DNA of 64,000 nt, from positions 19,644,213-19,708,212 of the forward strand of contig OZ234493.1 in the NCBI GenBank assembly GCA_965153455.1. Direction: 5' to 3'. Positions 4,749 to 64,000 of this stretch are shown one piece after another. Under the pieces are notes generated by a model, which was not told the origin of the DNA, searched no databases, and saw nothing but the letters and a program-made list of their open reading frames with translations. The DNA comes from Sphagnum compactum. Taxonomy: Eukaryota. A program made the position numbers and the translations under genes. Numbering within the stretch: position 1 is the stretch's first letter; each line of letters opens with the position of its first letter.

Positions 4749-5369
4749 AATCTCTGACAACACCACGACTGCTAGACCGCATTTAGTACCTTGGTTTGAA
4801 ATGACGTTGGCACTCGCTGTGGAAGATTCAACAAAGAATGCCGAATTCTTCACACTAAGTCACCACAGCGCCGGCACCGGCAATAGACTTTCCTTGAGGA
4901 CGCTAGATCGCCACGTGCGTCGTCGGCACTGGCAATTGAGATTTTATTTCTGCCAATCCAAATCTTGCCGTACGTCGGCAGCCGACAGACAAGACAATCG
5001 ATCGATCCTCCTCTCACGGGTTGCTTTGTTTCCTCTGTTTCTCCAACCAATAAAATGAGCTTTCCTTTTGTGTCTCTCTCTGCTTGCAAGAGTGACAGAT
5101 CCAGTGTACTATGAGCGATCCATTGTGACAGATCTGTAGTATGAGTGATCCATTGATTCATGAGAGTGTTACCGTATGAGAGCAACTATGTTGGTATAGT
5201 TAGGGTTAATCTGGTGGGGTGTCTTTGTGATACCTCTTCGCGAAGAGCTGCCGTTTTAGTTCCTGATGCTCTTGAACTGGAGAATCGAGGGTCAATTTGA
5301 GAGGGCTTTTACAGCTTTAGTATTACTCTATTAGTCTAACAGAGCTTTGGGAGTAGCTAGGGTTCAAAG

Positions 5370-6014
5370 ATGGGAGATGGGGGGCGATCACGTTTGTATT
5401 GTCCTGGTTCCCCTGGCGCTAAAATCAGAGAGAAACTGAGACAGTTGAAAGACAAACGAGTTGGTATAGAGCCGGATGCTTGTGTCTATGCCAGACTTGA
5501 ACCGTGTGGTCAGTTGGTCTCAAGTTCAGATTCTCACCAAACCGGAAATCCGGAAATTGTTTCGGAAGTTTTGCCAACTGACGTGCATCGTGATGATGCC
5601 GAGCAGCAAGGTGTCAAGTTTGATCTGGATTACGCTCTCCGACAGCCGCTTTGTGCAACTGATTGGGATATGGAGGAGTACCCTGGCGATCACACTGCGG
5701 GAAACAGACAGCTCAAGTTCACAGGGGTGAGGAAAAAAGCCGGCTCATTCGTAGCAGAGATTCGCGTGTCAAGCAAGAAGAGAATCTGGCTGGGATCGTA
5801 CAAAAAAGCTGAACCAGCTGCTCTAGCACACGATGTCGCCACTTACCTGCGTGCCACCTACTTAAGCGGTACGAACCCTCAATACAACTTCGATAGTTCT
5901 CCATCCTCTTTTCCTCCTTCAAAAGAAATCTCAGATCTGGAAACTGATGAGGAAAAATGGGAACTCATCAAAAAGATTGCAGGAGAGTTTGCAAAAAAAG
6001 TAGGCCGCCGCTAA
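5370..6014 (+). CDS. AP2/ERF (DREB-like) transcription factor, intronless, divergent AP2 domain near the C-terminus
   Basis: 214-aa ORF containing FTGVRKKAGSFVAEIRVSSKKRIWLGSYKKAEPAALAHDVATYLR...YNF, i.e. the AP2 hallmarks GVR, AEIR, WLG, AAxAHD and NF. Confidence 0.85.
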   Translation: MGDGGRSRLYCPGSPGAKIREKLRQLKDKRVGIEPDACVYARLEPCGQLVSSSDSHQTGNPEIVSEVLPTDVHRDDAEQQGVKFDLDYALRQPLCATDWDMEEYPGDHTAGNRQLKFTGVRKKAGSFVAEIRVSSKKRIWLGSYKKAEPAALAHDVATYLRATYLSGTNPQYNFDSSPSSFPPSKEISDLETDEEKWELIKKIAGEFAKKVGRR

Positions 6015-7916: not shown

Positions 7917-9156
7917 ACACCTAATCCCTGCAGAGGTGGGCAATTACATTTTTGTAAAGCCCGCAAGCTCTTTACACTAGGTAAGGCACTCTCTAGGTAC
8001 ATTTTAAAAAACAAAAAATGTTAAATAGGCCAAGGGTCTTGAATGCTACCGGTACGAAAGGATTACCCCACATCACCATTACATCATCCTTCCCCTCGCT
8101 CTCTTAACCTTGGCGCCTTCCATTTCCCTTCGTACATAACAAGCTTTTCGTTCATCAACATGAGTTATGCTCGTGTTACCTATTTTGCATAACAGACCAT
8201 CGACATCCCCATCCCCATGGTACTTTTTGCCATGCATGCCATACCACCATGTCCTCTCGCCATCATGACAACGAACCTTTTCGCTTTAGGGCATCATTGT
8301 CGTCCTTCATTTTTGCACATGTTTTGTGCTTTGTATTGCACACCTACGACGTTTCCCTCCATCATTTTTTTACGCGCTTACGCCCATTGTCAAATGCTCT
8401 CACAACAGCTCTAGTTCTTCTCTAATGCCTTCGTCGTTGATCGATTGCATCGATACAATTGCTACAAGAGCTTCTACAACACCCTATCCACTACAACAAT
8501 AGGGGGCTATTTTGCGATCCAAATATCATCGCAAACAACAAAGAAAGAAGTTTTCGAAAGCCCGCTGTTGCGAACCATAATTCCTTGCAAACTCTTAAGC
8601 TCTTGCGATACCATAACATTCGCACCCGTACAATCGCAAGTCCTTCGCAACTCCCGAACTCGATACAATCGCATAACTTTTTCGATTGTAACTGCTTTTA
8701 TACATTGTTTGCGATTAACAATGCATCGGAAACTATCTGCAACAACCCCATCACCGCAACGACTTAGCGAATCGACTCAAAAGTCTATCGGTTTGTGATA
8801 TAAAATCTAACGCAAACTTTTTGGGATTCTCAAAATGCCACTAGAAGTTTGCGAAACCGTAGATTTCGTAAACCTGTTCTGGAATGATTTTACCCGTAAG
8901 AGTGTAACGATGTCTGTGACATGGTATATTTGGTCTTTTGGGTTTTGTAGTGTTGTGAAGAATTATGACTCGCAAATGGTTTTGAGATCCACTGTGTATC
9001 ACAAGAACATGGCACTGTATTCTTATTTTGGAAGCAGGGTTTATATTCATTTGGAGTCACTTTGGGCCGCAAAAAAATAAATCTATATCAAAATTTCAAT
9101 ATTTACAATGTAAAAGGGTTTGCAACCCTTGGGTATCTAACACACTAGCTGTCTAT

Positions 9157-10982
9157 CTAGAAGGGAGACTTCCTTCCCCTCTTGGATTTCTTCCTTGAAT
9201 CCTTCTTCCTAGTGTTCTCTGGTGGAGGGGGAGGCTACTCATCCTCCTCCCTCTCTTCATCGTCCCCCTGCCCCTTCTCCTCCTCCTCCTCCTCCTCCTC
9301 CCTATCCTCTTTATCTCTGCCCCTTGCAGAACCTGCATTTCAACTAGCAAATGAACTGGGTCCACTGCTAGTGCTAGCACTGGGAGTAGTGCTAGCTCTC
9401 TCCTCTTCATCACTGCTACCCTGGGAGCTCTCACTTTCACCCTCAGATGCATGCATTTCAATATGCAAAGGTTAGTCAACACCATAAATGAAAATCTTTA
9501 TTCAAATGAAAACAATCTCAACACAAACAGAAATTGAATCCCAACCAAACCCACTCACCAGTAGTGCATCAACATGTTCAAAAAGATGTTCCTTGCCATG
9601 CTCCTGGCCCATTTTCATTTTTACAGCTGTGATCTTCCTCTTGTACCTCTTGTATTGTCCCCATAATACAACAGGTCAATAAAAACGCATAAAGTATTTA
9701 TTCAAGTCTCTGACCACTTTTGCGAAGCGCAGACCTTCGCATACTGAAACTTGTGAAGCAGTTTGCGAAACAAATCCCATCGTATCTGAAAGCGCCAAAG
9801 CGCCATTTAAATCTTTGCGAAGCTGAAACTATCGCAACTCAAAACGCCAAAACTCCATTTGACCTATCTTTGCGATGCAATACGCATCGCAAAGGTATCG
9901 CAAACTGTCCTATTTGACTTGACAGAAACTCAACAGTAACTTTATTCGAATCTTTGCAGGAAAGAAATGGAGGAGAGGGAGGGTACTTACAAATGCTGCT
10001 TTGAGGCCGGGAATGCCACCTTGGTCTAGCCTGTGGGTGGTGTTTGGAACCAGTTTCACTCGCTCTGCTGCCTTGAGGAACTTCAATGGTGGATCACCAA
10101 CCTCGTCCACGACTGATTGCCATTCAGCAAGCTTCAGCTCCAGTGCCTTCAGGTCACGGTCAGACCTCCCAGACTCTCTGGCCTTCCTGGCCTTGGCTAG
10201 CTGCTCTGTGATCTCCTTCAGCTGCCTTGCTGCTTTCAGCTGCACCTCAGACTGGTAGAAGGCATTCCAGATGTCTTCTGAGAACTGAAGCGGCCTCTGC
10301 AAGTTCCTGTACACATTCAGGTCTCTCAGGTGAGCACGAATCTTCATCCTGTCATGGTATCTTGCTTGAGACATTGAATTGGAGATCTTGTCTGCAATCC
10401 ACTGTGAGTCAAGCTCTCCTCCATTTTGAAATGCTCCCTTGACTTGATTTATCACTCTTTTCTGCTCTGCCTTTGAGAGAGTGCCCCACTCAACTCCTCG
10501 TGCAAAGTTGGTGGAGACAATGTGCCTAATGGTGCTCTTGGCCCCAGTGTATGCCAACTCGGTTAGAATTCCCTCCTCTGCCAATGTTATCAGAGGGAGC
10601 TTCTTCCTCTCCTCCTCCTTCTTCTTCAAGTCGACTTTCTCCTTTCTGATGGCATCCCTCTCATCCTTACTCCTTTTCTTCTTGAGAGTTCTAGGTGAGA
10701 GAGCTCCTGTTGTTGCTCTCTCATCTCTCTTTCTCTTCTTCTCTGCTGCCTTGGCTTCTGCAGCCTTCCTTGCCTCCTCATCTCTTTGTGCTTCCCCTGC
10801 AGTTAGCCCTGCTTGCAATGCTTGACCTAAGATGGCTGTCAAGGATGCCAACCTTCAGGTGTCCTAGTATCGATTGCAGACAGCTCTGAAGCTCTCAAGT
10901 GATCGGCAATCATCTTCCTCAACCTTTCCTCATTGTTGTCACCTCCTCTAAACCCAGAACCCCCTCCACCAGTCCCAGCCAT
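9157..10982 (-). pseudogene. CACTA second gene, TnpA/Transposase_24 (Ptta/En/Spm)-like, three exons, disrupted
   Basis: ATG at 10982 (MAGTGGGGSG...) with a frameshift near 10852 into the 313-aa ORF. Contains RPLQFSEDIWNAFY and TTHRLDQGGI (HRLGxGG-like). GTAAGT donor after AAF (exon ends 9991); exon 2 LWGQYKRYKRK...HVDALL ends at a GTGAGT donor; acidic/Ser-rich exon 3 has two internal stops and ends KSPF* at 9157. Confidence 0.65.
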
Positions 10983-11888
10983 TGCAATCCGCAACCTCCT
11001 CTCTACCGCAAGCTTTCCTTCGACAATTCTCGAGCAAATTTGAGAATGAATTCAAATTCACTTACAAGTCCTTAAGGACTTCTAACAATTCAGGGCTTGC
11101 GATGTAATCCGCATCGCAACTTGCAATATACTATTTCTCGCAAAGGAGTCTGGGTTTCAAAAATGACTAACGGACGCATTTCCGAGGGCCGTGCAATGCT
11201 GTTAGTTTCGCAAAGTAGGGTTGCAAAGTCGGGGGCTTCGCTAATGTAGGAGGAAGTTAAAGGGTTTAGGACTTTGGTTTAAGGAACGTATGCGGATGCG
11301 AAGAGGGATGCGATGGTGGGGGGTTCGCAAGGGGTTCGCAAAATTTTAATTTATTCTGGCTTTAACATTTTGTTATTTTTTTCGCATATGCCAAAGGGTT
11401 TCGGGGGCTGGGGTTTTTGTGACTGTTCTGGGAATTTTTTATTTAGTCTCATGTGTCATGGTTGGTAACAAGTATGTTTCACCATGAAGTTTTGGTAGGG
11501 AATAAGGGTTTACTTCAACTTTTGTTTAATTTAGGCACTGTTGGAGCCCAAGCATCTATAAGGTAAGGTTTTTAATGTTTTATGAACAGATTTCTTTCAA
11601 GGTTTTCACTGGTTCCTTGCTCGATTAAACACCCTATCATTTACTCCCTTTGTATTTGATTTTTTTTACAGTATTTCCCCCTACTTCTAGATTGGTGTTG
11701 GCATTATTTGAGCAACCAGTCCTATAGGCGCTGTTGAGCCCAAATTGGATGCAGGTATGCGTTTCTTTTTGGTTTAAGTAGTCTCAATTTATGAGTAGTC
11801 AAGGGTTTATATTGTTGTATCACCTAGTTTTTGAAAGTCTAATTTGGTCTTTGCCTTACATTTGTGCCTTATTAATGTGACAGATGAT

Positions 11889-13036
11889 ATGTTTTCCTCC
11901 TCCGTTATCTCCACTAGTGACTCATCCTCCTCAAATGAGGGCACATCAGCTCATACGCAGGCAGAAGTGTCTCATTCTCCTCGTGGTCCACCTCGGCAGC
12001 TTTGCCAATGCACCAAGTGTGTTGGTCAGATTTCACAAAAGTCATATGTTTGTGCTCAACACATTCAGCGATTTGGGCGTCATCGTGGTCTTACCCCAGG
12101 AGCTTCTTCATCTCATGTGGTAAGTGTCATTTTACCATTGTCATTTTTCCTTTTTGATACATGTTATTTTTCATGAAATCCTCTCTGAAACTATTTTCAT
12201 TTCCATGGTTTGTTGTGGTTTTTTGAATGTAATAGGGTTCCCGTATGACACCACCACCCTATGTTCTATCACAAGGGGTTTTAACTGCCATAGGAAATGC
12301 ACTTTTGCAAGCATTTGCTGTAGGGATTGGTACCTCTCATGAGGCCAGTAAACCACATCATGAGGCAAGGCCACGTGTGCCCTCCGTTAGACAACGATCC
12401 AAAGCATAACGTCCAAGTGAGGGTCATGCTAGGACTATTGTTGGGGGCAGATGGGGTATGTGTGAGTTCACTGGTAAATGTGCCAATATTATCCAGTCAT
12501 GGAACCCTGCAGTTATTGGGTTACTTGATAGTTTGCCCTATGATGAGGAGGTTGTGGTTTGGGGTAGACGATGGATTGTTAAGACCTCTACACTTGGAGA
12601 GAGGCATGGCTATGGAGTATATGCTTGTGAGGACATCATTGTAGAGGATTCAACTAGTTGTCATAGAGAGGGTCCTACTTTGTTCCCTTATGGTGGGCCT
12701 ATCTATAAGAGAAGACATTGGAACAGGATCCTCACACAACATCCTGAGTGGAAGACCTTTGTTCTTGAGATGGACACCTTTGCTGGTAGCACTAGGAGGC
12801 AAAGTGATGGGAGGGTGATAGATGGAGACCCCATACGTTCTGGAAACATTGCTAGTTTCATCAACAGGACGGTGGGGACTCAGCCTAAGCGTAGGGCTAA
12901 TTGTGAGTGGGTTTTTGTTGGGGGACCTCCTCCAGCACCATATGGCCAGACTTATCATGAGGACCATTGCCTAGTTATAGCTACTAGGACCATCAAATCA
13001 GGAGATGAGTTGTTTACACACTATGAGTGGAATTAG
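11889..13036 (+). pseudogene. Zinc-finger + SET-domain (lysine methyltransferase-like) gene inside the CACTA element; one premature stop
   Basis: Exon 11889-12119 (77 codons, CQCTKC...C..HIQRFG) ends at a GTAAGT donor at 12120. TAG acceptor at 12233-12235; exon 12236-13036 is in frame, with TAA at 12407-12409. SET motifs: VKTSTLGERHGYGVYA, GNIASFINRT, ANCEW, VIATRTIKSGDELFTHY. Confidence 0.8.
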
Positions 13037-13182
13037 GATTCCACCATTTCTGAATTATGTACTTTGTTTAAGACATAACATACCATATCTATATACATGC
13101 ATTTCGGCATTTTTTATTTGTAATGTAATATGCAACTATGTTTGGTATATAGTTAAGATCTTCTGGATTTGGTACTACATAG

Positions 13183-16100
13183 AATATTTGGCCTTCTAAA
13201 GACATGCTACCACGGAGGTTGAGAGCAACATATCGGGAAATGGGCATGCCACACAAATCAGACTCGTCATCAACTCATTCTTCATCAAATGACTTGTCTG
13301 CTCATGATGAAGGTGTCTCTCAACCAGTTCATGAAGCACCACTGCCTGCAAACCAAGAACAAGCGATGGCTGACTTCATGGTTGACTGGTTCGGACTTGA
13401 CAGAGTTGATGGTATGTCTGGCAACCCACATGATGAAGGAGCCAATGCAGATGATCCACGTCGTCAACATACTGCCCAGGGACAACGGCAGTGGCAAGAG
13501 GCAGAGGCACATGCTCGAACACCTATTTTTCAGGGTGCAAGGTTAAACCGTTTAGCAGCCATATTGGGGTTGTTAAACATCCAAGCAAAACACAAGGCAA
13601 GCAATATTATGTTGTCAGACAGTTTTTAGTATTGTCATAGCCTTTTGCTGCCTGAGGAAAATGTTTTGCCAGGATCTTGGAAGGAGGCTAAAAAGATCCT
13701 ATCCTCCATAGGCATGGAATATCAAATTGTCCATGCATGTGTTAATGACTGCATGTTATTTCATGGGAACAATGTCCATTTAACGGAGTGCAGTAGATGT
13801 GAAGAGGCTCGATATGATCGTCACATGCTTACAGGGAAGGTGCCCAGGAAATCAGTAAGGTGGTTTCCCATTATTCCTCGCTTGTTACACATGTATCGAT
13901 GTACAGACTTGCCTGAGTTAATGGTTTGGCATAAGAAGCATCGATCAGAGCCTGGTGTTATGAGGTTACCGGTTGACTCTCCTGCTCACAAGCATGTGGA
14001 GTCAACATGGCCAGAGTTTGAGCGTGACCCTAGGCATGTGAGGTTGGGGTTAGCATCAAATGGTGTTAGTCCACATTCACTTGAAGGAAAGGGACGACCT
14101 ACCTCTGTTTGGCCAGTTGTTGTCATGAATTACAACCTTCCTCCGTGGTTGTCTATGAAAAATGGATTTTTGCTGCTTTCTCTTATTATCCCAAGGCCAA
14201 GTAAGGTGAAAAACCTAGACACCTACTTAGCACTAGTGATCGATGAGCTCAAAACACTGTGGGATGGAGTATGGGCATATGATGGGAGGAAGACCACTAG
14301 AGGAATACCACGTGTATTAAGGTTGAAGGCAATATGCATGTGGACAATGCATGATTATCCTGGTAAGAAATCATGCACATGCCTTTATATAATTTTTTAT
14401 TATTCTGTTTTGTGATTATTTGTTGTTCTAATATTGAGTTCTTCTACAATCAGGGTTTGGTTTTGTAAGTGGGCTGCAAACTCAAGGCTATAAGGCCTGC
14501 TCTACATGTGGCCCAAGTTTGGAGGACATGGCTAAGTACTCAAGCCATTTTCGCAAAATTGTTTACCTTGGCCATACAAAATTTCTTCCACTGGGACATG
14601 ATATGAAATCAGACCCACTTTTATTTTCATCTTTTGACATGCCTTGTGATGATGAGCGTGATATTCCAGAAGCTACCACTTTTGCATATTGGAGGGATGT
14701 GGCCAATAGAATTACTGACCCAAATGATTCTATGGTGTTTGAAGGTAGTTGATTGACAAGGTGGGGTATACTCAACAACTTGCCCTACTGGGGTGAGCTG
14801 AAAATACGTCATCTCTTGGACCCCATGCACATTGAGGGAAATGTGGGAAAGGCTATCATAAAACAGTTCTATGGAGAGAAGGACAGTAACTTTAGGGAGG
14901 CCTGTGAGGATCTTGAGAGGCATCCCGATGTGTGGATTACTGTTGATCCTAACACAGGTATTGAGCAGCGACCATCAGCTCCACTGACACTTACTACACG
15001 GGAAAGAAAAGACTTTCGAAATCGTATAGGAGAGATGCGATTCCCTACAGGTTTAAACTTTGATGGCAAGGGTTGAATTTAGAAGTATTCTGTTGCTTTT
15101 ATTTATATTTAAATCTGTATGCCTTATACTCGAAAAAGAGTTTGAAGTATAGAATGCTATCTATTGGATGTCCAGAATACTTTTGTATAATTTTATGGAT
15201 CCTTGTTGCAGGTTATGGAGCCAATCTTCAAAAAGCTTTTGGTAGGGACAATGACCACAAGTGGCCAAGGTATCTCAAGACACATGACTATCATCGTTTA
15301 CTGCAGCACATATTGCCTGTGGTAATAATAGGCTTAGCCAGTGCAAAAGTACAAGATGTTCTTTGGTCATTGGGAAATCTGTTGAGATGGGTATGCTCAA
15401 AGGAGTTATATGTAGAGGAGATTCCAAGAATGAGGGTAATAGCAGCAGAGGTGGTATGTAAGTTGGAAAAGGCCTTCCCTCCATCATTTTTTGATTAGTG
15501 CATTTACTAGTTCACGTTGTGGATGAGATAGTCATTGCTGGTCCTGTGCATTGTCGATGGATGTATTGGCTTGAAAGATATATGGTAGTATTAAAGGGTT
15601 ATGTCTGTAACCGTACACGAGTGGAAGGAAGCATGGCAACACGACACTTGGCAGCAGAGAACATGTTTTATTGCAGCAACATCTTGGCCACTATAGATCC
15701 ATCATGTCCTCATGTCTGGATGGAGGAAAGAGAAGAGGAGGAAGACCGTTTGACTGGTGCCATCAAAACATGTATGTTATTACCTACAGAGTTAATTCAG
15801 CTGACCGCATTCATGTTGAATAATAGCAATGTCATGGAAGAGTGGAGGAACTTCTATGAGAATGCCAAAAGTATGAGTGGGAGATCAAGGATTTTTCCTA
15901 CGTTTCATAAGTACATGAAAGAGAAGTTGGCTGAAGTGGATCAATTGTTGGCACAAGGAGAAAGTATATCTTGTTTTCCAGAGGTCTTAGATGATGTTCG
16001 CACCATTGTTCATGGACCACTGAGAGTTGTGACAACACGTTCAGCAATGTGGACACAAGGAAGACATTTCAGGTATTTATTTTTTCTATTTCATTAGGCA

Positions 16101-16290
16101 TATTAACTCATCTTCACATTCCAGACAGGTTTTTTAGAATGTTCTAGGATGATTTTTATGGGCATCCATAATAATGTTTCTATTATCATATAGGTTGTTG
16201 ACTCACAATGCCTAACACAATATTAATTTCAGGATTTCCACTTTGGATGAAAAGAGGGGCCGCACCTTTGACTTTGGAGTTCAATTATGA
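13183..16290 (+). pseudogene. CACTA TnpD transposase (Transposase_21/DUF4218-type), multi-exon, disrupted
   Basis: Motifs HACVNDCMLF, RHVRLGLA-x-NG, SVWPV, NLPPW, HDYPG, ACSTC, LPYW...HLLDPMHIEGNV, LKTHDYH, GPVHCRWMYWLERY. GT-AG introns 14363-14453, 15051-15211 and 16073-16232. Stops at 13627 and 14750, frameshift near 15497, truncated after RTFDFGV. Confidence 0.92.
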
Positions 16291-16969
16291 TGGTTTTTAA
16301 CATCTCAACTTCATATTTTCACAAATTTTCATTTCCCAATTTTGAGGATTATTTAATGATGAAACTGACCTCGGGTAAGGTATCTTGAAAATCTGCCACC
16401 CCAACCTTTTTTTACTGGAGTAATCTTGCCAACATGTGAAATTAATTTTTTTTAAATCCAAAAAAAAAGTGAGGTTTTCAATCACCAGAAATGAGGGGAA
16501 AAAAGTAAAAATTGTGAGATTTGACATTTGGTTATCATTGTGCAGCAAAAAAAAATAGAAAAATGATTAAAGATTTGCGCTTTACTTCTGGTTTAAAGCC
16601 TGATTTGGCTAAATCTTCCTAGGAATAATCACCACCTTTTTTTACATCTTCCTACAAAGAATCCCCACTTTGGCTGCAAACAAAAATTCCTTAAAAGAAC
16701 ACTGAGATTCTGGGATTTGGGCTAGTGGAGTCGGACTCAGCAGTCAGGACCATTGTACCATAGTACATGGTCATGGGAGGACTCTGCATGGTACTCAAGA
16801 CGTTAGTTATGATCAGGACAACATGGCAAGATCATGAATTCCATCGTGCACATAATGGAAAGTCGCAACCTTGAAACCATGAGATGACTGAAAGGGAGAG
16901 ATTTGAACCAAATGCTTTCTTCTATTTCCTGATTTTGTGATGTAGCTGAAGTTGTGATCAATCTATAAA

Positions 16970-27543: not shown

Positions 27544-28194
27544 CTAAAACTGTCGGTTGTTTAGTGGTGTCTTTCTTGTTTGTGCAAACTTTTTGGCAAG
27601 CTTTCTGATGAGTTCAATTTTTTCCTCATCAGAGTTCAGATGTGAGATTTCGTCGAAAGGAGGAAAAGAGGATGGAGAACTGTCGAAGTTGTATGTTGGA
27701 TCCTTAGCGCCAAAGTAAGTGGCACGCAAGAAAGTGGCGACATCATGTGCTAGAGCAGCTGCTTCGGCTGTTTTGAACGATCCCAGCCAAATTCTCTCGT
27801 TGCGTTTTGTCACGCGGATCTCTGCTGTGAATGAGCCGTTGCGATATCTCACCCCTATGCTGCCCACCCTTAGATCTCCCGCAGTGAGTTCGGGGAACTC
27901 CTCCAGAAAATCGAGATCGACACAAAACGGTTGTCGAAGACCATAATCCAGATCAAACTGGACAACTTGCTCCACAGAAGTAATTGGCAAAACGTCAGAG
28001 ACAATTTCAGGATTCCCGGTTGCTTGAGAACCTGAACTTGAGGCCGCGAACTGATGACACGGAACTTGTCGAGAAAGAACACAACGATCCGGTCCTCTAC
28101 CAACTCTGTTGTCTTTGGCCTGTTTCAATTTCTCTTTGCGTTTAGTCTGCGAGCAACCAGAACCCTTCCAATTTGCTTCCCCCCCATCCACCAT
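27544..28194 (-). CDS. AP2/ERF (DREB-like) transcription factor, paralogue of 5370-6014
   Basis: SIGVRYRNGSFTAEIRVTKRNERIWLGSFKTAEAAALAHDVATFLR...YNFDSSPSSFPP. The ATG at 28194 (TTCAAAG-ATG context) aligns with the paralogue's start. Shared N-terminal motifs TGNPEIVS.VLP and FDLDY.LRQP.C. Confidence 0.85.
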   Translation of the reverse strand: MVDGGEANWKGSGCSQTKRKEKLKQAKDNRVGRGPDRCVLSRQVPCHQFAASSSGSQATGNPEIVSDVLPITSVEQVVQFDLDYGLRQPFCVDLDFLEEFPELTAGDLRVGSIGVRYRNGSFTAEIRVTKRNERIWLGSFKTAEAAALAHDVATFLRATYFGAKDPTYNFDSSPSSFPPFDEISHLNSDEEKIELIRKLAKKFAQTRKTPLNNRQF

Positions 28195-28702
28195 CTTTGA
28201 AATGCTATAACCCAACAACTATGGACCAGACGGAGCTAGAAAAGCCGTAAAATAAAGCCCGATCAAATTGACCCTCGAATATCGACCACTTCAAGAATAC
28301 AGGAGCAAGAAAAAAAATTCACGAAAGGGCTCTTTCTTTCTGCAATGGATTGTTGTCTATTTGTTGTCCTCCACACACCCCTTCCCCAACTCTTTGGAAA
28401 AAAAGACGGCTCTTCGCTAAGCTTTGAAGTGCACGGTGCCCCGAATTCTGACATGCACCTCAACAGTTGGAGCTCTTTATATGTACAGTGAGGGCACCGT
28501 GGGTCTCTCTCGTGAATCAAGAGTTGCTCATACTAGCCTACTTACACAGAGAAGAGGTTGAACATAACTTGTCGGCAATGGGGCCCATGAACCCATTGAA
28601 AGGGAAGAAACATGGGCCAACATTGCCGATTGCCTAACAAGTGATGTTAGACTGCCGACATTCAGATTTTCTTAGTATATTTGGAGATACTCTTACAAAG
28701 AG

Positions 28703-29348
28703 TATTATGGCCGCTGGGCTTTCCAGTTTCGAAAAGCCCAGAGGCCATTTTTTTGGTCCTGTGATACCCAGCCTGTTATGGCTGCTGCTGGGCTTTCCAT
28801 TTTCGTAAAGCCCAGAGGCCATTTTTTTGGTCCTGTGATACCCAACCTATTATGGCTGCTGCTGGGCTTTCGATTTTCGTAAAGCCCAGAGGCCATTTTT
28901 TTTGTCCTGTGATACCCAGCCTATTATAGCTGCTGCTGGGCTTTCCATTTTCGTAAAGCCCAGAGGCCTTTTTTTTTGTCCTGTGATACCCAGCCTATTA
29001 TGGCTGCTGCTGGGCTTTCCATTTTCGTAAAGCCCAGGGGCCTTTTTTTTTTGTCCTGTGATACCCAGCCTATTATGGCTGCTGCTGGGCTTTCCATTTT
29101 CGTAAAGCCCAGGGGCCTTTTTTTTTGTCCTGTGACAACCAGCCTATAATGGCTGCTGGGCTTTCGATTTTGGTAAAGTCCATTTTTTGTCCTGTGATAC
29201 CCAGCCTATTATGGCTGCTGGGCTTTCCATTTTCGTAAAGCCAAGAGGCCATGTTCTTTTCCTGTGATACCCCAGCCTATTATGGTTGTTGGGCTTTCGC
29301 TTTTGGTAAAGCCTAGAGGCCATTTTTTTTTTTCCTGTGATACCAAGC
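28703..29348. repeat. Minisatellite, 9 units of about 74 bp, each with an internal inverted repeat
   Basis: Unit TATTATGGCTGCTGCTGGGCTTTCCATTTTCGTAAAGCCCAGAGGCC(T)nGTCCTGTGATACCCAGCC starts at 28703, 28774, 28848, 28922, 28996, 29071, 29145, 29207 and 29278. Confidence 0.95.
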
Positions 29349-52127: not shown

Positions 52128-52681
52128 AGGTCTTCCTTGCAAATGTGACATACAAAGCAATGTGATAGTTGCCTGCCTATCAAGAGAAATCTGTTTTACG
52201 AAAGTTGTGCAAACATGGCCATGTCACATAATTAGTGATCAGGAAGAACGTCCACGTCTTCAACCCAATGCCGATGCTCTCTAATTCCAGTGACGATGTG
52301 ATGTGAGCTCATTGCAGCCAAGGTGCATTGAAGAAATTTCTAGAATTGCAAATTGGAAAGCACTTCTGATGGAAGGAATATTGCTGTAAATTTAGCCAGT
52401 TTGACACTGTTTCTACAATTCTATCTTCGTTGTTGTCCAGGCAGAATTCCAAAGCGTTGTTGCTGCTGCAACATCATAATATTTCGACTTATTGGTTTTT
52501 TTTTTTTTTTCCTCTGGCAAAATTAGGCCCCGACAGGAATGGAGGCCCTGAGGATTATGATTTCTGGAGTTCTGACATCTGGAAAGGGGACGCAATGTGA
52601 GCTCATTGCAGACAACTTTGCTTTGAACAGACCTCTTCACCTATCTCCCCCCCCTTCAACACAACAACTCTCATTAAACCA

Positions 52682-55600
52682 ATGAACGAAGAGGAAGAGG
52701 AGGCCCCTTTGGAGGACCCGCGCATCCATCGAAATCGTCTTGCTCGGGAGAGGCACGCTGCTCGATCTGAGAAGCAACGTGCGGTAGATGCCAACCGACG
52801 GGCAACTCATAGAGCTGCGCGTAGTGATGCGCAAATTGCTGCGGATACCAGCCGACGAAAAACTCAGAGAGTTGTGCGTAGTGATGTGCAAATTGCAGCA
52901 GATGCCAGCAAGCGCAGCGATGCCCAGATTACGGCGGATGCCAACCGACGGGCAGTAAAGAGAACTACACACAACAATGCGCAAAATGTTATGAATGCCA
53001 GCTGGCGGGTAGTTCAGAGAACTGCGTGCAACGATGTGCAAATTGCTTTAGAAAATGTTGGGCGTGTTAACGCCCGGACACTTTTGCATTCTGATAGGCA
53101 ACATGAAATGCATAACACAGATCCTCAGGCTCACCAGGGCCAGCGTGAGCAATTGCCGGAAGAGCGTCGCCAAGAAATTCAAAACATTGATTGTCAAGCA
53201 CGTAGTGCCCAGCGTGAACTAGATCGCGCAAACCAAGGTGGGAATCAAATGATACCTTTGGCGCGCCATGAATTTGATGGCAGCCATCGTGGTCTTCGCC
53301 ACACTTTAGGTGAAATGACCACTGTGTGTGGCAAGTGCGACGCCCTACACTTTTTGGAAGAGCGTGCTGCATCAAGTTCGTGCGCCAATCCGCAATTTAC
53401 ACTGTGTTGCGCGCAAGGTAAAGTGACGCTACCCCCGTTGGCACCCCCACCAGAGCCACTCAGGCGGCTCCTTACAGGTAAAGAAATGGATGCGAAAGAC
53501 TTTCGTCAGCACATCCGCTCTTACAACACTGCGTTAGCCTTCACGTCTGTGGGGGCCAACCTGGATACCAGTGTTGCCCAACCTGGCAATTATACTTACC
53601 GTCTTTGCGGTGAGCTTTACCACAGGATGGGGAGTCTACTTCCTCAACCTGGCGAGGCGCGAAAATTCGCCCAACTATACATCAGCGATCCGCATGCCGA
53701 GCTCGATGGCCGGATGGGCAATTTTGGTGGCTTGAATAGGGACACCATGCAGTCATTGCAAACGATGTTACATGCATGCAACCCCTATGCCATCATCTAC
53801 CAAACGGCCGCGGAACGGCTCCAAGGCGGGGCTATTGAGCTAAGTCTTCGTTTGGTGAACGATCGCCGCACTAATTTGCAATGTTATAATGCGCCAACTG
53901 TTGACGAAGTTGGCGCATTGATGGTTGGGGGCGATGTGGATGAAGTAGACGCACGCGACATTGTTCTGCGTTCGACTAATGGCTATTTTCAGCGCGTTTC
54001 TCCCCTGCACAGTGCATACGCACCACTACACTACGTGCTTCTCTTCCCAGATGGACGCAACGGATGGCATGACGGCATCCCATTGAATGGATTTCAATGG
54101 GATGGTTCCTTGTTCATCCAGGATGACGAGAATACAATAGGTGGTAAACGCGGTTCTGCGCGCGTCACCATGCTTCAATATTATGCATACATGCTACAGC
54201 ATCGCGTCAACCAGGAATGGATTCTACGAGCCGGAAGGCTTTTGCAACAATTCATTGTTGACGCGTATGCATGTACTGAACAGAACCGCTTGAAGTTTAT
54301 TCGCGAGAACCAACGACAGTTGCGTTGCGACTTGTACAATGGTCTCCAAGATGCATTGAATGCTGGCGACGTTCTCGGGAACGACGTCGGGCAAAAGATG
54401 ATTCTCCCGTCGTCATTCCAGGGTGGTGAGCGCGCCATGGGCCAATTGTACCAAGATGCCATGGCCAGGGTCCGCAAATTTGGTAAGCCGGACCTTTTTG
54501 TCACATTTACCTGTAATCCTAAATGGAAAGAGATTACAGATGCGCTTCTCCTGGGGCAGATTGCCAAGGATCGCCCAGAGTTAGTAACTCGCGTTTTCAA
54601 TTTGAAACTTGACACCCTTTTGAGGGACATCAAAGACGGTGTTCTTGGCAATGTGATTGCTAAAATTTGGGTCATCGAGTTTCAAAAGAGAGGCTTGCCC
54701 CACGCACACATTTTGCTCATTTTAGATGAAGCGTCAAAATTGCGCACCACCGAGGACTTCGATTCGATGGTATCAGCCGAGATTCCGGATTCGATACGCC
54801 ATCCTGAGGCATACGAGACGGTCACTTCGTGCATGGTGCATGGGCCATGTGGTCCAGATTTTCTCAACGCACAATGCATGGAGCAGGGAAAATGCAAGAA
54901 AAGGTACCCACGTTCCTTTAGTGAAGAAACGCGCTGTGATGTTGACGGGTACCCGGAGTACCGGCGGCGTCAAACCCGCATTTTTGTAGATCCAAAGACG
55001 CAGCGCGTGGTGGATAACCGGTGGATTGTCCCGTATAATCTTCACTTGGCAACCAAGTACCATGCGCACATCAACGTGGAGATATGTTCGTCCATATCTG
55101 CCGTCAAGTACATGTACAAGTATGTGTACAAGGGACCTGACCGTGCTATTGCCGTTGTCGAAAGGCAGGCGAATAGGCATGGCCAGGAGAACAATGCGCA
55201 GGTGGTTGTTGCTAATGGTGAGGGGCAAAACCACGATGAAATTAAAGCATACCTTGAAGGACGTTATGTCTCTGCTTCCGAGGCATCGTGGCGTCTTTTC
55301 TCTTTTAGAATGCATGAAGGGACACCGTCTATCACACGCCTTGCCGTGCACGAGCCTGGAATGCATCAGGTCATGTACAATGAAAGTGCCAGTATTTTTG
55401 AAACTATTCATAGCGAGCAAAACCAGAAAACAACGCTCACCGAATACTTCCAAGCCAATATTGATTACCCCTTGGCAAGAAAAGTCACGTACATGGATTT
55501 TCCTTCTGTGTTTACATGGACCAATGGGACGAAAAAATGGACCATCCGGCAGAGAGGGTGCTGTGTCGGGCGCCTTTATTTCGTTAGTCCTTCCGCTGGC

Positions 55601-57516
55601 GAACGCTATTTCTTGCGTACATTGTTAACGAAGGTCAAAGGTGCTATTTCTTTTGAAGTTCTTCGCACAATTAACGGTGTTGTCCATGACACATTCAAAT
55701 CAACGTGCATTGCACTTGGTTTGTATGACTCGGATGACGAGTGGAATGCCTGTTTAGGAGAAGCAGTTGTCATGCAAACAGGTGCGCAATTGCGATCTCT
55801 GTTTGTGACCATCTTGGCCTTTGGCGTTCCAGGTGAGCCGCGCATGCTCTGGGACAAGTACAAGGAGCACATTTGCGATGACTGCAAGGTAGCATTACAA
55901 CGTCGCGGTATAATGGAACCGTCCATTGAGCAAATTGAGAGTTGGGCATTACATTCCTTACGGGATACGCTTGCCAAATTTAACAAAACTCTCGAGGATT
56001 TTGGCCTTCCTACCCCCTCTGTTGCCTTTCATCGATTAGAGACCAATCGCCTGCTTGAGGTGGAGCGCGACTACAATGTTGAAGTCTTGCAAGTCAAGGT
56101 GTCTACGGCCATTGAGAGCCTCAATAATGGGCAGCGTGCAGCCTATGATGGCGTAATCAATGCATATGCTGCCCATCACGCTAAAGTCATCTTTATCGAT
56201 GGCCCCGGTGGAACGGGTAAAACCTACATCGAAAACTTGATTTTGAACGCTGTGCGTTCGTGTGGCGATATTGCACTTGTTGTCGCCTCTTCAGGCATTG
56301 CTGCACTTCTGCTCTCTGGAGGGCAAACGGCCCATTCGTACCTGAAGATCCCGATCGCACTCGACTGTACGTCCTTATGTTATATTCGTAAACAAGATGA
56401 TTTAGCGGCGCTAATCCGTCAAACGAAACTCATCCTTTGGGATGAAGCTCCTATGACTAATGAGCTCGTTTTTGAAGCGGTGGATCGAACTTTGCGTGAC
56501 CTTACAGACAGGAATGAACCCTTTGGCGGCATTGTTTTCGTCATGTCAGGGGACTTTCGCCAAGTCCTTCCGGTCATTCCCCGGGGATCCCATGCAGACA
56601 TTGTCTCTGCATCGATCAAGAACTCCTACCTATGGGAATCTGTTGAGGTATTCCGTCTTTCGAAAAATATGCGAGCCGATGATGCCATTGCTATTCACCC
56701 CGATCTTGGGAATCGCACTTTTGCAGACTGGCTTCTTTGTCTTGGCAACAACGAGTTAGAAACCATCGATGAGGACTACATCAAATGTCCAGACATGATG
56801 AAACTCCCTCCTGCGGACACACGAGCCATGGCTGTGGCCATCTACCCTCAACTACACAAGGGCCAGGTCACAAACGAGTATTTGCGTGAGCGCGCGATTT
56901 TGGCTCCTCGCAACAAGGAGGTTTCGCTAATAAATGTGATGGTTTTAAGCTACCTTCCAGGCGCACAAGTTGACTTCCTTAGTGCGGATTTCGCAGAGGA
57001 CTTGGAAGTGGCGAACACATACCCTTCCGAATTCCTCAACACTTTGGAAGTCAGTGGCATGCCTTCACACAAGCTGTCGTTCAAGATTGGCGCACCAGTG
57101 ATGCTGTTGCGCAATCTTGACCCCTTGGCTGGGCTATGCAATGGACGCGCCTGATTATTCGACGCTTCACGATGCGAGTCGTTGAGGCTGAGATCATCAC
57201 AGGCAAAGGGGCTGGTAATGTGGCCTTTATCCCGCGCATTAAGTTCATTTCCGATAACAGCGGTTTGCCATTTACATTTGCAAGGAAGCAATTTCCTTTG
57301 CGGCTAGCCTATGCGATGACTATTAATAAGTCTCAAGGGCAGACCCTCTCTCATGTTGGCCTTCATCTCGCAGATGACGTTTTTTCGCATGGCCAACTTT
57401 ATGTTGCCTTTTCACGTGCCAAGGCACCAGCGAACATCAAAGTTCTATTGCCAGACACAATGCATGGCCGGATTGGCCTTATGCGCAATGTTGTGTACGA
57501 AGAAGCCCTCCTTTGA
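52682..57516 (+). CDS. Helitron RepHel (HUH Rep + PIF1 helicase), intronless, single 1-bp frameshift near 57144
   Basis: Zn motif CGKC...CC; Rep motifs PDLFVTFTCNP, EFQKRGLPHAH and KYMYKYVYKG; helicase motifs GPGGTGKT, DEAPM, GDFRQVLPV, NMRA and LAPRN. GLCNG|TRL is split by the frameshift, followed by QFPLRLAYAMTINKSQGQTL and HGQLYVAFSR. Confidence 0.95.
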
Positions 57517-60592: not shown

Positions 60593-62425
60593 GGAGCTAG
60601 AGAAGATTGATACCCATCACTCTGAGCTGCTTTTGAAGCTTCTGAAGCTTCTTCTTCCTCTGACCATGAAGCTGAAAACTTAGACTCAAAGCTGAAGTTC
60701 TCTCACCATAAATCTTGGTCCCATGAAGCTGAAAGCTTAGACTCAAAGCCTAGACTTTTCTCTTAGTAACTCCTTATCTTCTTGAGCAGGAACCGATGAA
60801 AACATTCTCCATAGCTGGCAATGTAACAGTGCTCAAAGGAAGTTCAGCTTTTGAACTCTAGACTTGCTTGAGCTTCATGTTCTCATGATGAAACCTAAGC
60901 AGCCTTGGAAAAGATCCATGGAAAAGCACAAGACATGGGAATGGACATATTTTAATGCCCTCATCAGCAAGTCTTCTTACTTTTGGGGGACTTCACAGTG
61001 TCCGAAGGTCACGGGTACTTATATAATATTTTAGGTTTTGTCCTGTTGTGGTTGGCGGTCGTCCTTTCCATCCATCCATCCCGTCGTTCATCCCGTCATC
61101 CATTCGTCCCTCCATCCATCCAAGGCAAAGAGTGGGGGGGAGGGCGCGGGCCCTTCTTAAATTGCAAAACTCCACTGTTTCGCGGAATTGCCCATTCTGC
61201 CCTATTTATAGCACAATAGGTATCCATCCTGTTATGAAGGGGTATTGGCCCATAATAAAAATTTCAGGCAGGCACTGAGGAAGGCTTGTTATGCAATCAA
61301 TGCAGCCAATTTTGTCCTTTTTTGGGTTTTGGGGAGAGGGGGAAAGGGAGAAATTTTTTCTTTTTTCTATTGGGGGTGGGGGTCCCATCATCCATCCATG
61401 GAATGGAGGAGACAATCATGTGGCAATTGATCTCATAGTAAGGAGGTAGTTGTCAGGAGGGACCGACCCCAGGTCGTCCCTAGCAGTGTTGTTTTTTATT
61501 TTATTTTTCTAAGATTTTTTGTTTGTAACCACAGTGGGGATCTTCCATAGAAAAATGTGGCGACCTTCCTCAAGAAGATTGTGCCAAAACTGGCTATAAA
61601 GCCGGATATGAAGTAAACAACTGTAATCGTGCTTCTATATCTTTGACTACACACTCAAAACCAACCAAATATATTTGATAATTTTGTCTTTTTTTGCTCC
61701 CCCCCCCCCCCCCCCCACTCACTTTTGGGGGACTTCACAGTGTCCGAAGGTCACGGGTACCCACTAGTATATAAATAATATAGTGAGAAAAACACTAAAA
61801 TAATAGAATCTCCAAATTTTCATTTAAATTTTTTTGCCATAGAAAGAAACATCGTTTCTCATTCAAAAGAGACATTTAAATTACACTCTATAACAATGAT
61901 CATGGTATGAGATGCATGGTGTCTCAAGGACTTCATTGCATTCCTAGGTGGAATAGGTCGATTCTGTAGTTCGTTAAAAAAGGCTCCCCTGTAGTCTAAT
62001 TCCAAGGCCGAATCAGCACTTCCTGTTGATTCTGCAGCACTACCAATTCTGACATACACCCCTACAGAGACTCCTACCTGAAACCTTACGGAATGAGGCC
62101 ACAATGTGGCCAATGCCAAGCTCGTACTCATTAGGCTTGTTGTGCTTTGTAAACATACCTCCAAATACATTAAGAAAAATATGGGAGGTTTTTATGGTAA
62201 ATGAAATCCACTAACTAGGTTATTTTTGACCATATTGACCCTTTAAACTGGACATCCAAAAGGTGCAGCGTTTGGGTTAGTTGAGCAAGATTGAAGAGTG
62301 TGGGCCTATGGCCTTCCATGGAAATGTATGCCAGCCCAGACTACTCAACCGTATGTATATAGAGGAGCAAGTCGTGCTTATCTTTGTGTGCTGCTTCTCT
62401 CTTTGCTCCTTCCTAGTTGGTTTCC

Positions 62426-63267
62426 TGACACACTAGCTACTTCTCAACTTCCACCCCTTCAGGACACACCTCCAATCACCATGGCCAACCTATTGCAGGC
62501 AGTCGATGCATTAGGTTTTGTGACACACTAGCTATTTCACAACTTCCACCCCTTCAGGACACACCTCCAATCACCATGGCCAACCTATTGCTGGCAGTCG
62601 ATGCATTAGGTTACGTGACACACTAACTACTTCCCAACTTCCACCCCTTCAGGACACACCTCCAATCACAATGGCCAACCTATTGCAAGCAGTCGATGCA
62701 TTAGGTTTCGTGACACACTAGCTACTTCCCAACTTCCACCCCTTCAGAACACACCTCCAATCACCATGGCCAACCTATTGCAGGCAGTCGATGCATTAGG
62801 TTTAGTGACACACTAGCTACTTCCCAACTTCCACCCCTTCAGGACCCACCTCCAATCACCATGGCCAACCTATTGCAGGCAGTCGATGCATTAGGTTTTG
62901 TGACACACTAGCTACTTCCCAACTTCCACCCCTTCAGGACCCACCTCCAATCACCATGGCCAACCTATTGCAGGCAGTCGATGCATTAGGTTTTGTGACA
63001 CACTAGCTACTTCCCAACTTCCACCCCTTCAGGACACACCTCCAATCACCATGGCCAACCTATTGCAGGCAGTCGATGCATTAGGTTTCGTGACACACTA
63101 GCTACTTCCCAACTTCCACCCCTTCAGGACCCACCTCCAATCACCATGCCCAACCTATTGCAGGCAGTCGATGCATTAGGTTTTGTGACACACTAGCTAT
63201 TTCCCAACTTTCACCCCTTCAGGACCCACCTCCAATCACCATGGCCAACCTATTGCAGGCAGTCGAT
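62426..63267. repeat. Homogeneous tandem array, about 8.9 units of 95 bp
   Basis: TGACACACTAGCTACTTCCCAACTTCCACCCCTTCAGGACACACCTCCAATCACCATGGCCAACCTATTGCAGGCAGTCGATGCATTAGGTTTTG starts at 62426, 62521, 62616, 62711, 62806, 62901, 62996, 63091 and 63186. Confidence 0.97.
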
Positions 63268-64000
63268 TTTTTCACATCTAGTTTGAGCTAACTTGATGTC
63301 ATGTAAATTCTTCCTTTTTCCTTATTCCTTGGTACATTTTTCAATTCTAGAGTGTGTTTACAAATAAAGTTTTGCAGGGTTGCACCAAATAAAAGTGAGA
63401 CAGTGTGAATGGAGAAAATGTAGCTGGAGATCAAGAAAAAAGGGACATAAATATGTACACAGAAGTTGTAATAATTATGGTGAAATTCCAAAAAGTAATG
63501 AACATAAACTGGACAGAAACTTAAAATAGTAGAACTTAGATTAATCGACTTTACCTTTCAACCGTCTCTTGGGACCAGGTGTTTTTTTAATAAAAAAATT
63601 CCAAATTTTTTGATATTAACATTTGGTGAATGTTTCCAGAAATTAGCAAATTTACTTGAATTTACTCAAAACTTAAATTTTTTGTGATAAAAAACAGAAA
63701 ATTTTGTCCAAAGAAAATTACTGCTTAGGAAGTTTGGATCACTGGTTTTTTTTTTATCCTTTTCTTTTTTTTCAATTCTCTGATTTTTCAAAATTGAAAA
63801 AAATTGGTAAACATGAATTTTCCGAAATAAATCTCAATAAAAAAATTTAAAAAGAAAAAAAATTTTGGTATAAAAGAATTCACTGCTTTAGACTTCTGTA
63901 ATGCTAAAATTGCAAAAATGCTCTCCAAAATGTGCCTGTGGGATAGTGACAAGTAAATAAATAAATAAGGGAAAATCACACTGCAAGGGAACAAGAGAAG

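Follow-up and report, generated by a model that had tools for sequence, protein, structure and literature searches.

Can one exon of a DNA transposon supply the same zinc finger to two different proteins, a transposase and a SET-domain protein? Transposons with chromatin enzymes are rare, and how such enzymes find the chromatin of their own element is an open question; the answer may lie in gene structure, with a SET domain attached by alternative splicing to the 77-residue finger of the transposase. The question is raised by a stretch of 64,000 nucleotides (nt) of Sphagnum compactum DNA (GenBank assembly GCA_965153455.1, contig OZ234493.1, positions 19,644,213 to 19,708,212 of the forward strand), here called the window and numbered from its first letter, which contains a decayed copy of a CACTA/EnSpm DNA transposon at 8489-16284. 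The original prediction, made from the letters alone, held that the phase-0 donor after position 12119 is in frame both with an acceptor at 12236, which opens a SET exon, and with an acceptor at 13183, which opens the first exon of a TnpD-type transposase, and these coordinates and frames proved correct when checked. Both junctions occur in RNA of the family, and we conclude that one donor and two acceptors probably yield either a finger-TnpD transposase or a finger-SET protein, with the SET exon lying inside the first coding intron of the transposase.

One donor and two acceptors in RNA of the family

RNA was compared with the window between 9500 and 16500, using reads at least 90% alike from four runs: X24, the raw reads of a stranded poly(A) library; X8, the contigs of a metatranscriptome; and X1 and X3, further metatranscriptomes. 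Of the 1229 X24 reads, 14 were at least 99% like the window, 449 were 95-99% alike and 766 were 90-95% alike, a spread that indicates RNA from sister copies and not from the window copy. The transcription unit is made up of the following parts.

9500-10328, plus strand: upstream leader exon; the end at 10328 is defined by RNA, and 9500 is only the edge of the stretch examined
11490-11562, plus strand: non-coding leader exon A (joints 10327>11488 and 11560>11670, 13 reads in X24; GT..AG)
11672-11754, plus strand: leader exon B (joints 11560>11670 and 11754>11889, 6 reads)
11884-12119, plus strand: shared first coding exon (finger exon), with ATG at 11889, 77 codons and a phase-0 donor GTAAGT starting at 12120
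12120-12235, plus strand: proximal intron of 116 nt (joint 12118>12235, GT..AG), which appears to be often retained
12236-13036, plus strand: SET exon, an alternative terminal coding exon in frame with the finger exon (acceptor AG at 12234-12235)
13037-13182, plus strand: spacer, comprising the probable 3' untranslated region of SET and the end of the 1063-nt TnpD intron (CATAG at 13178-13182)
13183-14362, plus strand: TnpD exon that follows the finger exon; its frame opens NIWPSKD (Transposase_21, E = 6.2e-37)
14454-15050, plus strand: TnpD exon, Transposase_21 (joints 14361>14453, 21 reads, and 15047>15209, 22 reads)
15212-16072, plus strand: TnpD exon with DUF4218, placed by Pfam, RNA and splice context
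16233-16284, plus strand: start of the next TnpD exon (joint 16065>16226, 24 reads); the copy is cut at 16284

The two predicted junctions, 12119^13183 and 12119^12236, were both found in sister-copy RNA, and all introns of the unit are GT..AG, canonical at every site. Junction 12119^13183 (joint 12118>13182), which connects the finger exon to TnpD, was covered in X24 by 14 reads (1+13) with 12 starts and a shorter side of 71 letters; a further 7 X24 reads, with loose ends at 13182, contain the final letters of the finger exon, and the junction is also present in 1 X8 contig. Junction 12119^12236 (joint 12118>12235), which connects the finger exon to the SET exon, was covered by 1 X24 read (shorter side of 69 letters) and 1 X8 contig. 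The X8 contigs form a fork, with one contig ending at 12119 and two contigs that carry an identical 29-nt overhang and run into SET (12235-12851) and into TnpD (13182-14363), respectively, each at a depth of 13.4; such a fork is what alternative splicing leaves in an assembly graph. One donor is thus joined to two acceptors in RNA, both in frame, as in alternative splicing of the En/Spm type. The in-frame geometry alone would be weak evidence, because, by simple arithmetic, chance would leave 7 open codons ahead of the ATG at 13204 in about 70% of cases; the splice fork stands above chance because both junctions are present in RNA at exactly the predicted bases, with GT..AG ends.

Between 11372 and 13243, X24 RNA comes from the plus strand only. 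The binned X24 depths, obtained by arithmetic, are about 36 over the finger exon, about 10 over the 116-nt intron, 14-16 over the SET exon, about 2 from the SET stop to 13182 and 20-54 over TnpD, and SET-bearing RNA in this run ends soon past the SET stop. The drop to about 2 upstream of 13182, vs. 20-54 within TnpD, indicates that transcription of TnpD does not for the most part begin near 13204, which had been named as part of what would refute the shared-exon idea. We estimate that most of the X24 finger exons lead to TnpD, that about a quarter to a third run unspliced into the SET exon, and that few are spliced to it.

Upstream of the finger exon, two small exons had been proposed at 11535-11562 and 11691-11754 as a shared 5' untranslated region. 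RNA joints confirmed their 3' ends (11562 and 11754) but not their 5' ends, which lie at 11490 and 11672, and revealed an additional upstream exon ending at 10328, whose joint (10326/7>11488) was found in 3 X24 reads and in 1 contig each from X1 and X8, with GT..AG ends in X8. One X8 contig skips leader exon B and runs straight from 11562 into the finger exon. Two ATGs, at 11749 and 11884, precede the ATG of the finger exon (11889) and are not in its frame; at 11884-11888, the X24 reads have 3 letters vs. 5 in the window, which would place an extra ATG in frame in those copies.

The finger exon and the N-terminus of TnpD

The 77-residue product of the finger exon consists of an acidic Ser/Asp-rich leader and a Cys3-His finger, C-x-C-x2-C-x13-H-x4-G, and the annotations of several Sphagnum species include proteins with 95-99% identity to this product of 11889-12119. 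The suggestion that this finger belongs to the transposase rested on two premises, that the TnpD exon has no N-terminal Cys/His finger of its own and that a canonical CACTA TnpD begins with one. The residues encoded by TnpD exon 1 (13183-13626) include zero Cys. Four canonical angiosperm TnpDs with PF13963, the 'transposase-associated' finger (P0072, P0073, P0076 and P0078), carry an N-terminal C-x-C-x2-C-x13-H-x4-G finger, and a finger of identical spacing is found at the N-terminus of P0070, which at 1135 residues is the closest long relative and shares 45% identity with the window core. Comparison with hhalign of a profile of 17 finger exons to a profile of five TnpD N-termini aligned 32 gap-free columns (probability 90-92%, P = 7e-7 to 1.6e-6) with a score of 36.6, vs. 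15.9 for the reversed template and a mean of 10.3 (standard deviation 2.5, maximum 19.9) for 100 column shuffles.

A search of 1.84 billion representatives with the finger profile yielded 24 proteins at E up to 0.001, which are short single-exon calls (38-212 residues) with the exception of one 1230-residue low-complexity match; a long TnpD is not among them. In distant finger proteins (such as P0056-P0059) the finger is kept, and most of these proteins end shortly after a conserved Gly/Ala-Ser-Ser-Ser stretch, which points to a conserved exon end. Taken together, the dominant 12119^13183 junction, the homology of the finger to TnpD N-termini and the Cys-less TnpD exon 1 indicate that the finger exon is most likely the transposase's own first coding exon. 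The SET exon would then occupy the first coding intron of TnpD and borrow its finger, as the original prediction had it, the finger exon aligning with TnpD N-termini of the PF13963 type.

The splicing pattern suggests how the unit would work. A common promoter would drive two or three short leader exons followed by the shared finger exon (11884-12119). Use of the distal acceptor at 13183 would remove the 1063-nt intron and yield the full finger-TnpD transposase as the main product, and use of the proximal acceptor at 12236 would remove 116 nt and yield a 343-residue finger-SET protein. Since finger-SET RNA ends shortly past the SET stop, the choice of acceptor would be coupled to alternative 3' end formation. 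The shared finger would give both proteins one target, either DNA or a protein partner of the transposase; the SET module would act at or near the element's own chromatin or the transposition complex; and the choice of isoform would be regulated. A finger-targeted function of the SET protein is plausible.

A possible duplication, by which the Ser-rich start of the finger exon would have been copied from the Ser-rich start of TnpD exon 1, was rejected as not significant (the observed score was reached by 52 of 1000 protein shuffles and by 10 of 500 DNA shuffles). P0027, a Sphagnum balticum gene model of 1720 residues with WRKY (PF03106) and PF15628 domains, includes a stretch 84% identical to part of TnpD exon 1; either the annotation is chimeric or a transposon fragment has been exonised, as may be the case here.

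Conservation of the SET exon and alternative explanations

The SET open reading frame of the window matches Pfam PF00856 (E = 4.9e-7, 30.6 bits vs. a cut-off of 22.4), and the Atlas clusters nearest to the SET protein are SET. The usual cofactor and catalytic motifs of SET domains are GxG, NH and ELxxxY; inspection by eye identified G-Y-G and E-L-F-T-H-Y. Searches of solved structures with the single SET sequence and with a profile gave chance matches only (E above 0.6). In the window copy the exon is broken by an in-frame TAA at 12407-12409, where intact relatives have Gln.

The exact finger-SET junction recurs in a 360-member cluster of gene models, 343 residues in length, whose sources are S. 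jensenii, S. troendelagicum, S. balticum, S. compactum and S. fallax; with a shorter model from S. tenellum that has the identical junction, at least six Sphagnum species are represented. It is also found in two models of the liverwort Calypogeia fissa (P0015 and P0016), in which the finger is 76-81% identical to the Sphagnum exon and the junction to the SET exon is alike; over 242 residues, one of the two is 55% identical to the Sphagnum protein, and both the finger and the first half of SET are well preserved in it. The Calypogeia finger-SET arrangement represents either a very old retention or a horizontal transfer between bog bryophytes. A further protein, P0049, belongs to one group with P0015 and P0016.

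Within the family, we compared the window to 32 related loci from peat metagenomes with 91-95% nucleotide identity to it. In the family consensus all three exons are open, SET over 267 codons, and the SET exon is present in 6 of the 6 metagenome loci that span finger to TnpD. The donor is kept in 7 of 8 loci, the proximal acceptor in 9 of 11 and the distal acceptor CATAG in 26 of 28. Conservation of the acceptor at 13182 across copies, which the original prediction had named as a check, is thus observed, yet at a neutral divergence of about 6% it carries little weight; among copies 92-95% identical, splice-site conservation is weak evidence in general, because a neutral divergence of 5-8% would leave roughly such counts.

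Several observations weigh against the reading that one donor serves a transposase and a SET protein, in addition to those that favour particular alternatives below. The RNA evidence concerns the family and not the window copy, given that 766 of the 1229 X24 reads are just 90-95% alike, and the X8 joints have sides of 29 letters, just below the caution limit of 30. PF13963 did not match the finger exon in Pfam searches at E up to 0.1 and up to 10, and no database protein with the finger joined directly to TnpD was found in the homologue search or among the 1.84 billion representatives. In the intact protein P0010 the SET match is marginal (22.9 bits vs. the cut-off of 22.4), and an AlphaFold2 model of this protein (12-row alignment) was unusable, with a mean predicted local distance difference test score of 30.8. 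An intact SET exon was found in 2 of 10 loci and an intact finger exon in 1 of 6, counts that are unfavourable or neutral.

The alternative that survives best, which we nevertheless regard as unlikely, is that the SET exon is cargo, that the finger-SET splice is low-level noise, and that the 343-residue models are annotation by-products in which open exons were joined. CACTA elements reportedly carry captured host exons, to go by the title of a 2007 paper by Zabala and Vodkin cited in PMC2613891. Consistent with cargo, finger-SET is represented in X24 by 1 raw read vs. 14 for finger-TnpD (1 of the 15 junction reads at the donor), and neither junction was found in X1 or X3, that is, in 2 of the 4 runs, whose contigs are unspliced across 12119/12120 and 13182/13183 (an X3 contig, 11915-12222, is unspliced through the 116-nt intron) and may represent DNA or pre-mRNA. 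The shared within-family variants in SET (14 synonymous, 48 non-synonymous and 3 stop) look neutral and are uninformative, and the SET motifs are partly degenerate: in 'NH', the Asn is kept, and S, N or R stands in place of the His. Against this, the in-frame junction and the SET exon are kept in the liverwort at 55% identity, with a well conserved SET core, which argues against passive cargo, and the divergent protein P0017 seems to share the arrangement, as judged from intron read-through. The family consensus is intact over the 267 codons, X8 assembled both forms at equal contig depth, and the strand-specific depth falls from about 15 over the SET exon to about 2 past its stop, which fits a defined RNA 3' end and not a random intron signal.

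Less probable still is that SET is mainly a stand-alone protein of 263 residues, translated from the ATG at 12245 of intron-retaining or internally initiated RNA, with the finger fusion as a minor by-product. The Met at this position (Met81), with which the SET exon begins, does not vary among Sphagnum and Calypogeia proteins, and SET-only models of 263 residues exist in S. jensenii and on metagenome contigs, which together make a finger-less SET protein possible. The binned depths, moreover, lead to an estimate that about two thirds of the X24 SET-exon depth (about 10 of 15) retains the 116-nt intron, and in such RNA the finger frame stops early. These points are countered by the near invariance of Gly78 and Ser79, just before Met81, and by the fact that many of the 263-residue calls come from gene callers unable to splice; the RNA comparison reported no clustering of molecule starts near 12120-12245, and RNA from the common promoter would present the finger frame first, with the SET ATG downstream. 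Finally, independent transcription and translation of TnpD from about 13204, with the finger exon confined to a separate two-exon finger-SET gene, would account for the ATG at 13204, for the prokaryote-style calls on short contigs that start there (e.g., P0019-P0021) and for the absence of an annotated protein joining finger to TnpD, but is very improbable and, for the run examined (X24), largely refuted by the 14 reads, 7 loose ends and 1 contig that join 12119 to 13183, by the depth of about 2 just upstream of 13183, by the canonical finger that TnpD exon 1 lacks and the finger exon supplies, and by the recurrence in P0022 (63% identity) of the W-P-S that precedes the Met at 13204.

Under the favoured reading, in which alternative acceptors join one finger to TnpD or to SET, the finger-SET protein would be made and maintained by selection, and the arrangement would be an integrated design rather than passive cargo, as the original prediction proposed. 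A bolder proposal, which we consider possible and hold only tentatively, is that the finger is a reused targeting module, and that a combined acceptor and poly(A) switch sends either a DDE transposase or a SET-type methyltransferase to one target, the latter as an anti-silencing or self-limiting chromatin writer that would have been kept across mosses and a liverwort, from before their split or through horizontal transfer between bog neighbours. Sphagnum, with good genomes and many expressed copies, makes three questions testable: what the little-studied finger binds, whether SET places a histone mark at the element's own copies, and whether isoform choice tunes transposition. For annotation, the gene structure means that several hundred Sphagnum models labelled 'SET domain-containing protein' are transposon genes, and that the true start of the CACTA transposase in Sphagnum genomes is most likely an unannotated upstream exon.

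One Sphagnum jensenii model of 404 residues (P0012) runs from the finger through most of SET into the interior of TnpD exon 1 by way of an internal donor and acceptor; a joint of this type was not among the RNA joints listed.

Known systems and the copy in the window

Passages of PMC2613891 describe how En/Spm, a CACTA element of maize, produces TnpA and TnpD from one transcription unit by alternative splicing, and passages of PMC13547354 report alternative splicing of one unit for some Arabidopsis EN/SPM families as well. On these accounts, the Sphagnum element resembles En/Spm in superfamily, in one promoter with shared 5' exon(s), and in two proteins that include a Tnp2-type transposase (PMC2613891, PMC13547354). 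The nesting differs: in the En/Spm unit so described, intron 1 of tnpA holds the TnpD frame, with TnpA as the partner protein (PMC2613891), whereas in Sphagnum it is the transposase whose first coding intron holds the partner, the SET exon. In the Sphagnum element, unlike in En/Spm, the shared exon is coding (77 residues including the finger), and a TnpA-like gene was not identified in the Sphagnum copy: the open reading frames scanned gave no match to Transposase_24 or to another TnpA-like domain, the missing 3' part having been looked at in locus L016 only. In the P element, intron retention yields a second protein, the repressor isoform, which keeps the N-terminal finger of the transposase and works like a regulator with the same target as the transposase; no enzymatic domain is added there, and superfamily and host are different.

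Transposon-borne SET genes are described, in passages of PMC12730594 and bioRxiv 10.1101/2025.02.11.637652, in HarbingerS and MuDR elements of Phytophthora, in Helitron captures and, in the red alga Bostrychia, in the Plavaka accessory gene PAG2, which combines a DNA methylase and SET, Plavaka being placed in the EnSpm/CACTA superfamily. In common with the Sphagnum element, these are DNA transposons with a SET accessory function. In the same passages, these SET genes appear as accessory genes, and sharing of an exon with the transposase is not mentioned; the hosts named are oomycetes and red algae, vs. a land plant in the case of Sphagnum. SETMAR of primates, as characterised in PMC9062482, is similar in that SET and transposase-derived parts are united by splicing in one gene, and combines SET with a mariner transposase in one host protein. 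SETMAR is a domesticated host gene with one protein, whereas in the mobile Sphagnum family SET and the body of the transposase are mutually exclusive partners of the finger. VANC of VANDAL elements is portrayed in passages of PMC12730594 and bioRxiv 10.1101/2025.02.11.637652 as a transposon-encoded accessory anti-silencing protein that is thought to act on the element's own chromatin; it lacks a SET domain and is encoded by a gene of its own, and the chromatin role of the Sphagnum SET is only putative.

In the literature searched (full-text articles, without supplements or Repbase Reports), we found neither a CACTA transposase whose first coding intron houses a SET exon with a shared finger exon nor a SET-bearing CACTA element in bryophytes. 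The Sphagnum element combines known kinds, transposon-borne SET genes and CACTA alternative splicing; what appears new on this search is the SET exon in a transposase intron, sharing the finger.

Two further features belong to the window copy.

8489-8506, plus strand: 5' terminal inverted repeat, starting CACTACAACAA, at which homology to loci L016 and L009 begins
9910-10854, minus strand: antisense open frame of 314 codons opposite the leader; all 3 related loci compared keep it largely open, with 1-4 stops per locus

The copy is complete at its 5' end, truncated at its 3' end and decayed. The sequence CACTACAACAA, a CACTA-type terminus, is present at 8489 in the window and in L016 and L009, each at its own boundary, and the transposase is of the Tnp2/TnpD type (Pfam Transposase_21, PF02992, E = 6.2e-37 and 1.5e-7; DUF4218, PF13960, E = 4.3e-20). 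Homology of the window to the related loci sets in at 8489 and stops abruptly at 16284, beyond which L016, L002, L014 and 45 RNA reads go on with sequence absent from the window; the window contains no 3' terminus of the element, and neither does the part of L016 that was compared. A scripted search of the window for paired CACTA termini accordingly found nothing credible, since the copy is without its 3' end, and a generic pattern for terminal inverted repeats gave one irrelevant match. The TnpD frame is broken by an in-frame stop at 13627-13629 and, downstream of it, by another stop and a frameshift; compared with 33 of 47 reads, it also lacks 4 bases at 15496. With stops in SET and TnpD, a frameshift and the 3' cut, the window copy is a pseudogene. 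Differences between X24 reads and the window in 9500-16500 are predominantly C>T (163 places) and G>A (180 places), vs. 10-70 for other classes, an excess of the kind that methyl-CpG decay leaves in silenced copies.

The antisense frame gave no Pfam match and no usable Atlas match; minus-strand RNA covers it at a depth of 3-13 in X24, and the element may have in it an additional gene, perhaps one that substitutes for TnpA.

Elsewhere in the window, diverged open frames at 5361-6014 (plus strand) and 27544-28218 (minus strand) resemble AP2/ERF DNA-binding proteins by eye, and together form a 225-nt inverted repeat (I1, 83% complementary) that flanks the region; these frames do not mark the ends of the transposon. 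At 52601-57516 (plus strand), a frame of 1517 codons followed by one of 131 codons is similar by eye to a Helitron helicase (Rep and a PIF1-like helicase). Tandem arrays are located at 62324-63383, with 95-nt units (9 registered copies), and at 28636-29311, with units of about 74 nt.

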